Of a stretch of DNA of 31,156 nt, positions 908 through 2,597 are shown piece after piece. The notes below the pieces were generated by a model. It did no database searches, had not been told where the DNA came from, and was given only the letters and a program-made list of their open reading frames with translations. The DNA comes from a virus. The position numbers were made by a program, and so were the translations under genes. How positions within the stretch are numbered: the stretch's first letter is position 1; each line of letters opens with the position of its first letter. The stretch lies in the IMG/VR virus record IMGVR_UViG_3300045988_176073; one strand, 5' to 3'.

Positions 908-1645
908 TTAATTCTTAATTAAATCATGCTCATTTTTTAATTGAACTTTAGCTTCAAATTTATTGATGAATTCTTTCAAAAGTTTTTCTTCTTCTACCAT
1001 ATCATCCTCAAGAATTAAAATCAGATTTTTTTCGTTCATAATTGAATATAGAATATAAGATCTCGCATTATGAATAGTTGTATTATTTTTATTTAAAAAT
1101 TTAAAAAGGAACTCTTTATTTTCAATATCCTTAGCAACAAAATCTGGAGTAAATTTATCTAATGAATTCTTGCCACTTACGACATGCTTAGAAGTTATAT
1201 CTTTATATCGTCCTTCTAAATAAGTCATTACATACTTTCTTTTTTCATTTACATTTAATCTTTCCTTTTTATTCAACCCAAGATGTAAAATGTATTTATA
1301 AGTTTTATTAATAAAATCATTAACTTCATTAATGGAACTAAATGTTCTATATTCAATATCTTCAAAATAAAAATTATTAACAAATCTTTTTATATAATTC
1401 TGAAGCGATTGATTAGTATGTTCGAATTCAAATTTTAATCCATCTAAAAACATATTAATAAATTCTAAATCTTCAAGTTCATCATCAAAAGAAACAATTT
1501 TTTTTCTTTGAGTTATAAATTTAACTTCATTTTTATGATAGCTTTCTCCTACTACCTCAAAAGCAACACCTATAGCTAGATTACTTCTTAAATATATATC
1601 TGGATAGTAACTTAACACTGAATAATTCACTTTAAACATAGTCAA
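908..1645 (-). CDS. Uncharacterised partner protein of about 243 aa. The likely ATG is at 1637-1639. It is translationally coupled to the upstream kinase-like gene. I recognise no confident domain; there is a loose resemblance to a DUF of the YSVLxYxPD type.
   Basis: The ORF's AAGGAG SD lies inside the last codons of the upstream gene, 9 nt before the ATG. A terminator follows immediately. The operon occupies the accessory (moron) position. Confidence 0.8.
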   Translation of the reverse strand: MTMFKVNYSVLSYYPDIYLRSNLAIGVAFEVVGESYHKNEVKFITQRKKIVSFDDELEDLEFINMFLDGLKFEFEHTNQSLQNYIKRFVNNFYFEDIEYRTFSSINEVNDFINKTYKYILHLGLNKKERLNVNEKRKYVMTYLEGRYKDITSKHVVSGKNSLDKFTPDFVAKDIENKEFLFKFLNKNNTTIHNARSYILYSIMNEKNLILILEDDMVEEEKLLKEFINKFEAKVQLKNEHDLIKN

Positions 1646-2419
1646 TCACTCCTTTCCTATTTTTTCTATTATAAATTTAATAGCTTCATCAAAATTCTCG
1701 GTAATGTATATAAAGTACTTGTATAGTTGTTGTATATTTTCCTCAGAAAGATTATTTTTTAAATAAATAGGAATTTTAGAAATAATACTTTCAATATCAA
1801 CATCATTAACTTTATCAACAAAAGTTCTACCACAATCTTCAATTATTGATGTTTCAATTTTTCTATTTTCAAGTAAATATTGATAATATCCAGAACTAAA
1901 CATATCCTTAATTATATCCTCTATACTATAATCATCATTTTTAAGTACATCTGGCCAAATACATCCACCTGGTAAAATATGAGTATAATCAATAGGATAT
2001 AATTTTTTAGGGATTTCTATTAATAAATTACCTAAATTTCTATCTTTATTGTAAATAAAGATATCAAATAGAAGCAAATTGACAATTTCACTCTTTTGAA
2101 CAAAAGATGTCATGCTGGGCGAAGTAATTGTTAATGATTTTTCTAACCAAGTTGTGTAAGTGAACAAACTACTATGTACGTAATCTTTCCCATTTTTCAC
2201 TGCCGTATCTTCTTTGCTAAACAATGCATATCCAAAATGGGGATGTCTTATACCAAAAAATTCAGCTAAATTATAGCCTAATAATTCATTAAATAACGCA
2301 ATAAATCCTTCGTTATTGTGTATGTACTTTGCAACAACTTTTTTATCATCTATATATCCTCGAATAGGATCGGTTACTCCATTCCCCACATCCTCAGTGA
2401 TTTCTGAAATAATTTCCAA
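1646..2419 (-). CDS. Protein-kinase-like fold protein of the APH/choline-kinase/ePK-like superfamily, 257 aa. It starts with TTG.
   Basis: Catalytic-loop-like NKDRNLGNLLI (compare HGDlhpgNil/HRDLKPENI). A downstream IDYTH matches the IDWE/DFG position. N-terminal VGNGVTDP plus VVAKY resemble a Gly-loop plus beta-3 Lys. I assigned these by eye, with no database search. Own promoter; it is the first gene of a two-gene operon. Confidence 0.5.
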   Translation of the reverse strand: MEIISEITEDVGNGVTDPIRGYIDDKKVVAKYIHNNEGFIALFNELLGYNLAEFFGIRHPHFGYALFSKEDTAVKNGKDYVHSSLFTYTTWLEKSLTITSPSMTSFVQKSEIVNLLLFDIFIYNKDRNLGNLLIEIPKKLYPIDYTHILPGGCIWPDVLKNDDYSIEDIIKDMFSSGYYQYLLENRKIETSIIEDCGRTFVDKVNDVDIESIISKIPIYLKNNLSEENIQQLYKYFIYITENFDEAIKFIIEKIGKE

Positions 2420-2480
2420 CTTGTACCCCTGCCTCTATTATACTCAAAATTAATTACATTATACTCTAACTTTAATATGC
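2420..2480 (-). promoter_or_regulatory. Putative promoter region for the kinase-like operon. Two TATAAT boxes on the - strand (gagTATAATagagg and agagTATAATgtaat) lie upstream of an aggggt SD and the TTG start.
   Basis: -10 hexamers read on the reverse complement. The -35 elements are weak. It lies downstream of the endolysin terminator, so the operon is an independent transcription unit. Confidence 0.4.
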
Positions 2481-2560
2481 TGTGAACCACTATTTAAATC
2501 ACTATCTTTAAATTTGTTTCAGATAGATATAAAACACTAATCATATAATTACATTTAAAC

Positions 2561-2595
2561 ACAAAAAAGGGTAACCAAAAAATGGCTACCCTTTT
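2561..2595. terminator. Terminator of the lysis cassette. Stem gggtaacc/ggctaccc (one G-U pair), 7-nt loop, with U-runs on both sides, so it is likely bidirectional.
   Basis: Inverted repeat 2569-2576/2584-2591. AAAAAA 2563-2568 and TTTT 2592-2595. It abuts the endolysin stop at 2598. Confidence 0.7.
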
Positions 2596-2597
2596 AA

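Follow-up and report, generated by a model that had tools for sequence, protein, structure and literature searches.

Layout and setting of the cassette

The window, by which we mean the whole analysed stretch of 31,156 nucleotides, derives from a staphylococcal temperate phage, and its first and last 119 nt are the same, which marks it as a circular contig of 31,037 bp. It carries a two-gene cassette in which a kinase-fold gene is followed directly by the gene for a second protein, its partner (Table 1). An earlier note on this DNA had described both genes and their accompanying sequence features; all of these were recovered in place, with the strand corrected to minus. The cassette is flanked by the endolysin on one side and the attP/integrase region on the other, as had been proposed, although it does not adjoin attP: two small genes (691..825 and 306..518) separate the two. 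The operon has a GC content of 24.9%, against 28.9% for the remainder of the phage.

Table 1. Features of the two-gene cassette in the window
Feature	Coordinates	Strand	Detail or basis
Rho-independent terminator of the holin-endolysin cassette, bounding the unit on its upstream side	2565..2595	-	13-bp stem, 5 GC pairs, then T-run
Promoter-like region	2437..2486	-	Consensus match only
Shine-Dalgarno-like AGGGG, 6 nt 5' of the kinase TTG start	2426..2430	-	Sequence reading
HipA_2-family Ser/Thr kinase-fold gene, 257 aa, TTG start	1646..2419	-	Pfam HipA_2, phrog_3162, AF2/Foldseek, hhalign to DS-6A
Shine-Dalgarno motif (AAGGAG) of the partner, within the two final sense codons of the kinase gene	1649..1654	-	9 nt before ATG
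Partner gene, 243 aa, predicted divergent DUF3037 family (PDC-M66B/DS-6B type)	908..1639	-	phrog_7610, profile search, hhalign
Partner N-terminal DUF3037-like domain, ~residues 1-120	1280..1639	-	
Partner C-terminal domain, ~residues 125-243, alpha-beta-beta-beta-alpha-beta	911..1267	-	
Rho-independent terminator, end of operon	884..904	-	9-bp stem, 4 GC pairs, then TTTTTTT

The claim that the unit has signals of its own holds for the terminators found on both sides, and the region has an excess of terminator-like sites (5 observed against 0.9 expected). The TATAAT boxes are likewise present. The first belongs to a promoter-like arrangement of TTCACA (2486..2481) and TATAAT (2463..2458) with 17-nt spacing, scoring 11/12, and a second GAGTATAAT box, with its TATAAT at 2442..2437, lies 21 nt downstream of it. 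Both -10 boxes are carried by a 20-nt direct tandem repeat with a spacing of 21 nt, the sole find of an operator search of the promoter region, which returned no convincing palindrome. This region is kept in a relative with 97% identity and not in distant relatives. Since promoter-like hexamers in the region do not exceed expectation (24 observed against 29 expected), a promoter belonging to the operon itself is, from its sequence, only plausible.

The coupling of the two genes is tight. On the coding strand their junction reads GGAAAGGAG-TGA-TTGACT-ATG, so that 6 nt separate the kinase stop from the partner ATG and the Shine-Dalgarno motif of the partner falls within the 3' end of the kinase gene. 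The translational coupling described earlier is upheld, and the pair is an obligate one. A mechanical ORF call starts the partner at TTG 1645 (245 aa). We read the start as ATG 1639 because the homologues all begin at the methionine equivalent to this ATG.

Affinities of the kinase and its partner

The kinase matches the Pfam family HipA_2 (PF20613) at 32.9 bits against a cutoff of 27 (E 5e-8), in an alignment covering only model positions 1-136 of 240, and the same family is present in all eight of its precomputed homologues. The Pfam scan also returned a weak PI3_PI4_kinase match, the PHROGs assignment is phrog_3162 at 9e-55, and the NCBI name is "HipA family kinase [Staphylococcus]". An AF2 model (pLDDT 74, pTM 0.79), in which residues 128-153 of the catalytic/activation segment fall below pLDDT 50, retrieves CtkA as the best Foldseek match (E 6e-5, TM 0.54-0.61), with HipA (4pu4) and PI4KII-alpha (4hnd) among the others; the modelled fold is HipA/PI3-4-kinase/CtkA-like. 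This comparison, which the earlier note had suggested, overturns that note's description of the protein as APH-like. Neither an APH nor a ChoK assignment finds a Pfam match at E values up to 1, and APH(2'')-IVa appears only at Foldseek rank 38 with a TM of 0.26. An Stk2-type kinase was rejected as well, there being no Pkinase (PF00069) or PADLOC Stk2 match and eukaryote-like kinases giving TM values of 0.26-0.36. Recognition of a kinase-fold protein with a full motif set, on the other hand, is borne out: T16/P18 of the GxTxP loop, the beta-3 lysine K31, the catalytic-loop residues D126-R127 and N131, and the metal-binding D144 are invariant in nine homologues with identities down to 19%, DS-6A included. 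PDB sequence searches with the profiles of the kinase and the partner yielded noise only.

Scanned directly, the partner has no match in Pfam, NCBIfam or PADLOC, and in PHROGs it matches only families with no assigned function (phrog_7610, 3e-45). An HMMER profile search recovers 93 representative clusters, and among 50 relatives DUF3037 is matched by 39 and PDC-M66B by 32. The N-terminal domain conserves Y11, P13, G24, the F51-D52-D53-E54 stretch, N88 and F92. The C-terminal domain has the topology and core fold of PD-(D/E)xK restriction-endonuclease-like proteins, and its conserved positions are R127, G156, D/E161, D166, K180 and K/R193. At the strands expected for PD-(D/E)xK, D166 is kept in 48 of the 50 members and K180 in every one; the position two before K180 is occupied by G, A, C or L, and an alternative acidic residue, D/E161, is kept in 48/50.

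The wider relationships of the pair emerge from profile comparisons with the PADLOC candidate system PDC-M66 and with DS-6, also called "HipAD". The name HipAD reportedly goes back to Brenes and Laub in 2025. Taken directly, the kinase falls short of significance with PDC-M66A (E 0.021), and six of its eight close homologues match that model, the best at E 5.8e-6. With hhalign, it aligns to DS-6A at E 1.7e-5 and 78.5% probability over the N-terminal 135 columns only, in a register that pairs its NKDRN with NADRT of DS-6A and hence D126 with D139. The partner family profile aligns to DS-6B at 96.2% probability (E 2.3e-9) over 222 columns that span both domains. DS-6A in turn matches HipA_2/PDC-M66A, and DS-6B matches DUF3037/PDC-M66B. 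Because the partner lacks a direct Pfam match, membership rests on profile and transitive homology; judged by these, the cassette is probably (at about 0.72) a divergent phage-borne member of the HipA_2 kinase plus DUF3037 system. Its branch is a divergent Gram-positive prophage lineage that current defence HMMs miss, and it is new here. The earlier note could match the pair to no defence or toxin-antitoxin (TA) family it could name and rated it the best candidate for a new system. The want of a significant direct PADLOC match for either protein, and of a Pfam or NCBIfam match for the partner, would fit a categorically new kinase system unrelated to known families, but this is hardly credible given that both proteins are homologous at the profile level to PDC-M66 and DS-6, in identical gene order. 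The HipA_2 plus DUF3037 system has been validated by experiment both as DS-6 and within the Retron-Sda1 operon.

Two of these relatives have been studied experimentally. DS-6 protects E. coli, an AlphaFold3 prediction places its A and B proteins in a complex, and defence is lost when the predicted catalytic residue of DS-6A is mutated (PMC13092281); D139A is the DS-6A construct in the strain and plaque-assay tables of that study (PMC13092281). In the Retron-Sda1 operon, deletion of the HipA gene abolishes defence against Bas51, and deletion of the DUF3037 gene is toxic (PMC12548924). Loss of defence with the kinase and toxicity on deletion of the partner together point to the kinase as the toxic effector; by analogy, we predict the staphylococcal kinase to be the toxin/effector and its partner the antitoxin, with a possible further role as sensor. 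Alternatively, the roles may be reversed or shared: the PD-(D/E)xK-like C-terminal domain of the partner would act as an active nuclease or would sense nucleic acids, and the kinase would regulate it or be under its control. We regard this as quite unlikely. A nuclease would be expected to have an acidic residue at the canonical position two before the lysine, where the family has G, A, C or L, and an effector should be harmless when deleted, whereas it is loss or mutation of the kinase that disarms the relatives (PMC12548924, PMC13092281). A further elaboration, which we consider possible though doubtful, is that the partner does more than neutralise and forms a nuclease-fold sensor paired with a kinase effector: the C-terminal domain would bind or cut a nucleic-acid structure of the phage and thereby release or activate the kinase. 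The residues named for the sensor reading are R127, D/E161, D166, K180 and K/R193.

Distribution, decay and predicted role

The pair is rare, being carried by 11-13 of 50,697 phage records, and in a related phage the equivalent site is occupied by an Abi_2 gene. Both observations support the earlier proposal of accessory cargo carried at the moron site between lysin and att, as opposed to a conserved structural or lysis function. When the cassette and 24 kb of the phage were compared with GenBank phages by megablast, only the endolysin matched. A search of species-representative genomes with a seven-sequence alignment found S. schweitzeri alone, with a truncated partner. Where the pair does occur, a neighbourhood survey of the kind the earlier note had called for found the two genes together with the kinase first. 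S. aureus phages 52A and SAP-26, like the IMG/VR loci, have the kinase directly 5' of the partner, and this order extends to relatives of 25-31% identity (L025, L026, L027/L028 and L029/L030). The same-strand, tightly coupled arrangement is seen at loci L001, L004-L008 and L013-L030 and in DS-6, whose genes, going by their coordinates, overlap by 4 nt.

Position and strand might suggest that the kinase serves the phage's own lytic growth, in host takeover like T7 Gp0.7 or in the timing of lysis, instead of being lysogen cargo: it follows the lysis genes immediately and in the same orientation, and late-operon transcripts could conceivably extend into it. We consider this very improbable in view of the strong terminator between endolysin and kinase, the promoter-like boxes of the unit itself, the absence of the kinase from most related phages and its truncation in phage 80. 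There are, besides, homologues away from any phage late region, either next to an integrase and repressor module or beside polysaccharide biosynthesis genes.

Decay of the pair runs in one direction. In phage 80 the partner is intact but only a 77-aa remnant of the kinase is left, L003 and L009-L012 have lost the kinase and retain part of the partner, and none of the complete loci has a kinase without a partner. Such loss of the kinase with retention of the partner is a TA-like pattern that lends indirect support, at the level of gene content, to the partner neutralising the kinase. It would fit any TA system, including a plain addiction module that stabilises the prophage or mobile element and plays no part against other phages; the TA-like architecture, the toxicity of partner deletion in a relative (PMC12548924) and the presence of the pair on several kinds of mobile element are compatible with that as well. 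Addiction as the sole function is nevertheless unlikely: two independent relatives gave measurable, kinase-dependent protection against phage (PMC12548924, PMC13092281), and a moron/defence hotspot position, adjoining or replacing Abi_2, favours defence. The two roles are in any case not mutually exclusive, and a defence or TA role stands as the best reading.

For the preferred reading, a HipA_2-DUF3037 defence cassette, the following course of events may be envisaged. Transcription of the operon would start at its own promoter, most likely in the lysogen, and translational coupling would deliver both proteins in a fixed ratio. The DUF3037 partner, acting as antitoxin, would bind the kinase and keep it inactive until infection by another phage relieved the inhibition. 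The kinase, through K31, D126, N131 and D144, might then phosphorylate one or more targets and so halt growth or phage development in an abortive-infection-like manner. The homology of both proteins, the order and coupling of the genes, the intact catalytic set, the accessory distribution and the location are observed here. That defence needs the kinase and its catalytic aspartate, and that loss of the partner would be toxic, is carried over from the published relatives, and we infer both expression in the lysogen and defence by the staphylococcal version.

If correct, this reading extends the HipA_2 plus DUF3037 defence validated in E. coli to temperate phages of S. epidermidis, S. haemolyticus and S. 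aureus. Payne et al. (2024) make no mention of HipA or PDC-M66, and a search for staphylococcal HipA defence turned up reviews only, with no experiment on a Gram-positive member in the literature searched. At the lysin-att cargo site the partner gene escapes the PADLOC, Pfam and NCBIfam models tried, and the sequences could widen the PDC-M66 HMMs; the assignment is relevant to the annotation of staphylococcal prophage cargo and to host-range prediction in phage therapy. The nuclease-like fold of the partner, its conserved charged residues and the asymmetric decay are small additions to the known picture. Should the partner prove to be a sensor, the staphylococcal branch would offer a tractable Gram-positive model for how HipA_2/DUF3037 systems sense infection.

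Comparison with known systems

Among structurally characterised proteins the kinase most resembles Helicobacter pylori CtkA (PDB 3akj/3akk/3akl), likewise a compact HipA/PI3-4K-like Ser/Thr kinase. Their identity is only 12-14%, and CtkA is a secreted, pro-inflammatory protein without a DUF3037 partner. With canonical HipBA and HipBST the cassette shares the predicted logic of a HipA-superfamily kinase toxin neutralised by a cognate protein, as well as a DxxxxN catalytic loop followed by a metal-binding aspartate. It differs in having neither a HipB (HTH) nor a HipS component and in placing the candidate antitoxin downstream of the kinase, not upstream. The kinase itself has 257 aa, against ~440 aa for HipA, lacks the HipA N-terminal domains and matches HipA_2, not HipA_C/HipA_N. 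A canonical HipBA type II TA system was rejected, as the kinase is the first gene after the endolysin terminator. The nearby HTH gene (306..518), considered as a HipB-like third component, was also set aside: it lies beyond the operon terminator, is missing from phage 52A and has paralogues that accompany unrelated cargo in L011.

Retron-Sda1, likened here by description, contains a module of two genes, HipA-like and DUF3037, which is defensive by itself (PMC12548924). That module adjoins the retron RT/ncRNA and an HTH gene (PMC12548924), whereas the pair in the window stands free at a phage moron site. According to its authors, the Sda1 partner has a C-terminus similar to the DNA-binding protein found in type III-A1 retrons (PMC12548924).

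The closest counterparts are found in S. aureus phages. ORF013 (a "phosphatidylinositol kinase") and ORF019 of phage 52A form an orthologous pair in the same order and at the same endolysin-integrase site, and further orthologous pairs are present in SAP-26, vB_Sau_MetB16, the ECel-2020 phages and phage 80, where the kinase is truncated. The S. aureus phage orthologues share 41% identity with the window's kinase and 36% with its partner, and their annotation goes no further than hypothetical protein or PI-kinase.

DS-6/HipAD (DS-6A, WP_000389051.1; DS-6B, WP_000210934.1) is far more distant, with ~19% identity for the kinase and ~16% for the partner over aligned columns, and its host is E. coli as opposed to the Gram-positive Staphylococcus of the window's phage. 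The C-terminal domain of DS-6B has been called DUF1829-like at an HHpred probability of 0.78 (PMC13092281); none of the 50 partner-family members matches DUF1829. Even so, DS-6 is built the same way. The kinase gene comes first and encodes a compact HipA_2 protein of ~250 aa; the partner, at ~250-275 aa, combines DUF3037 at its N-terminus with an alpha/beta domain at its C-terminus; the two genes are tightly coupled or overlapping; and the whole travels as prophage or mobile-element cargo.

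Kinase and partner families

On the sequence evidence, we regard the cassette as a divergent Gram-positive phage-borne member of the known, recently validated HipA_2 + DUF3037 system. The earlier note had proposed an APH-like kinase with an unrecognised partner as a possible new system. Its observation of the pair was sound, and the kinase motifs it picked out (the Gly-rich loop, the VVAKY lysine, the KDRNLGN catalytic loop and the IDYTH metal site) are essentially right, but the claim of novelty does not stand because, by profile alignments and shared gene order, the pair is a homolog of PDC-M66, a PADLOC candidate, and of the E. 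coli pair DS-6.

The kinase scores 32.9 bits with HipA_2 (PF20613) in Pfam, where the cutoff is 27, and matches PI3_PI4_kinase more weakly over the catalytic loop. NCBI already labels the kinase cluster ‘HipA family kinase’; Pfam returned no APH, ChoK or Pkinase match. The AlphaFold2 model (pLDDT 74, pTM 0.79; residues 128-153 weak) is closest to Helicobacter pylori CtkA (E 6e-5, TM 0.54-0.61), followed by HipA and PI4KII-alpha, with APH(2'') at rank 38 (TM only 0.26). The family is thus HipA/PI3-4K-like rather than APH-like. Nine aligned kinase homologs, reaching down to 19% identity and taking in the validated E. coli DS-6A, share invariant T16, P18, K31, D119, N124, D126, R127, N131 and D144.

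The partner had no direct match among Pfam, NCBIfam and PADLOC models. An exhaustive HMMER profile search with it recovered 93 representative clusters, mostly of ~250-aa proteins; of 50 full-length family members, 39 match Pfam DUF3037 and 32 match the PADLOC model PDC-M66B. A confident AlphaFold2 model built from the family alignment (pLDDT 94) has two domains: a β-rich N-terminal one corresponding to DUF3037 and a C-terminal half with an α-β-β-β-α-β topology. R127 and K180 are invariant in the family, and G156, D/E161, D166 and K/R193 nearly so. The fold of the modeled C-terminal domain is nuclease-like, and charged residues are conserved in it; nuclease activity is uncertain because the canonical acidic position, two residues before K180, holds G, A, C or L. 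This domain lends the cassette modest interest, as does the partner's escape from the defence-system and protein-family models that we applied.

Operon and phage context

Features of the cassette and its surroundings
Feature	Coordinates	Strand	Remarks
Upstream terminator	2595..2565	minus	13-bp stem; ends holin-endolysin cassette
Promoter-like site	2486..2458	minus	11/12 match; second GAGTATAAT 21 nt further on
Kinase gene	2419..1646	minus	TTG start, 257 aa
Partner gene	1639..908	minus	ATG start, 243 aa
Downstream terminator	904..884	minus	9-bp stem and T-run
Small ORF	691-825	minus	44 aa, Lys/Glu-rich, hydrophobic C-terminal helix (MYQERKEKEMKRIEKEKERIEKIKYRLAITGLIIQILNFIKSFI); promoter-like site 855..828
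HTH gene	306-518	minus	70 aa, Cro/C1-type, HTH_26; phrog_1529 at 3e-23; past operon terminator
Tyrosine integrase	29835..30959

The coupling of the two genes is borne out: on the coding strand their junction reads GGAAAGGAG-TGA-TTGACT-ATG, with the partner Shine-Dalgarno AAGGAG formed by the final codons of the kinase gene, 9 nt from the partner ATG. We took this ATG as the start, not TTG 1645 of the mechanical ORF list, because the homologs all begin at the equivalent methionine. The two terminator stems likewise agree with the view that the unit follows the lysis cassette and ends on its own. Terminator-like sites are enriched in the region (5 observed, 0.9 expected); promoter-like hexamers are not (24 observed, 29 expected in this AT-rich DNA), and the promoter upstream of the kinase gene is therefore rated plausible, not demonstrated. 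Both GAGTATAAT boxes there sit within a 20-nt direct repeat (2437-2477 in plus-strand coordinates; ATTATACTC..., copies 80% identical with 21-nt spacing), which may represent tandem promoters or an autoregulatory binding site. The operon has a GC content of 24.9%, against 28.9% for the remainder of the phage.

Nucleotides 1-119 are identical to 31038-31156; hence, the window closes into a circle (unit length 31,037 bp) and is not a chromosomally flanked prophage. Six copies of AGTTGCCCA (0.06 expected by chance), at 30964..31024 and 213..262, lie on both sides of the contig junction, closely following the integrase gene, and probably represent arm-type sites of attP bound by the integrase. Circularity, integrase and these sites together place the cassette between the endolysin (Amidase_2 + SH3b, accompanied by a Phage_holin_4_1 holin) and the attP/integrase region, from which two small genes separate it. 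No family matches the 44-aa product of one, possibly a toxin-like peptide or a small membrane protein. The other encodes an HTH protein; a related locus, L011, has paralogous small HTH genes at 6200-6397, before an Abi_2 gene, and at 8844-9068, after a truncated partner, and such proteins may be regulators traveling with moron cassettes.

The endolysin is 86-92% identical to that of S. epidermidis phage PI-Sepi-HH2 and alone matched in a megablast of window 2600-27000 against 50,697 GenBank phage records, in which the phage backbone is unrepresented. At NCBI, the proteins that share 90% clusters with the kinase and partner belong to S. epidermidis and S. haemolyticus. A 97%-identical relative (L005) is integrated in a 75-kb contig; there, DNA at 9944-11150, past the counterpart of window position 1, carries a frameshifted SPP1-gp7-like head morphogenesis gene, which suggests a second phage remnant adjoining the attachment site.

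Distribution and asymmetric decay

Among GenBank phages, the pair occurs in only 11-13 records, all S. aureus phages (including 52A, SAP-26, vB_Sau_MetB16, the ECel-2020 phages and phage 80), with 41% (kinase) and 36% (partner) identity to the window. In 52A, the sole complete locus with annotation inspected, it lies between endolysin and integrase. At the lysin-att site of L011, from a PI-Sepi-HH2-like phage, we found a 315-aa Abi_2 (AbiD/F-like) protein (6606-7553; Pfam E 5e-41), so this site behaves as a defence-cargo hotspot. Given this and the narrow spread, the pair is not a conserved lysis or structural accessory, the alternative that the earlier note had said would undo its proposal.

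In every complete IMG/VR and metagenome locus, the kinase is directly upstream of the partner; this order holds also for relatives of 25-31% identity, whose settings are a prophage lysogeny module, a neighborhood of polysaccharide genes and an element with a terminase. A distant DUF3037 relative, P0096, is solitary and adjoins a PhdYeFM antitoxin gene. No complete locus has a kinase without a partner. Phage 80 (NC_030652.1 41082-42056) retains only the C-terminal 77 aa of the kinase (gp60) beside an intact partner (gp61), and this widely used laboratory phage could be a natural kinase-null control. A 138-aa N-terminal partner fragment occurs without a kinase in S. schweitzeri, in PI-Sepi-HH2-like phages and in a 398-member cluster mostly from S. 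aureus; in L003 and L009-L012 (e.g., L011 8001-8417), it is 77% identical to the window partner, and DNA homology begins exactly at the kinase-partner junction. Such loss of the kinase with retention of the partner would be the pattern expected of a toxin kinase and an antitoxin partner.

Relation to HipAD

A strong association between DUF3037 and HipA-like kinases has been reported, the pair being PDC-M66 in PADLOC; that of the Retron-Sda1 operon gives defence by itself, HipA deletion abolishing defence against Bas51 and DUF3037 deletion being toxic (PMC12548924). DS-6, validated and renamed HipAD, comprises the HipA-family kinase DS-6A and DS-6B (DUF3037 + DUF1829), which are predicted by AlphaFold3 to form a complex; defence was lost when the predicted catalytic residue of DS-6A was mutated (construct D139A in the supplementary tables; PMC13092281). 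Our literature search on staphylococcal HipA defence found no report of a tested staphylococcal member.

By analogy with these relatives, from which we borrow both the need for the kinase and the toxic effect of losing the partner, the partner would keep the kinase inactive; phage infection would lift this hold, and the freed kinase would phosphorylate a target, aborting infection. Expression in the lysogen, trigger, target and activity in Staphylococcus are what we infer; the window itself contributes homology, synteny, catalytic integrity and context. With the DS-6 sequences from the supplement of PMC13092281, DS-6A matches HipA_2 (1e-76) and PDC-M66A (6e-15), and DS-6B matches DUF3037 (8e-24) and PDC-M66B (4e-16). 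The staphylococcal kinase profile aligns to DS-6A (E 1.7e-5) with NKDRN over NADRT, equating window D126 with D139, and the partner family profile aligns to DS-6B over 222 columns spanning both domains (96.2% probability, E 2.3e-9). DS-6 also shares the kinase-then-partner order of the window, its two genes overlapping by 4 nt as judged from their coordinates.
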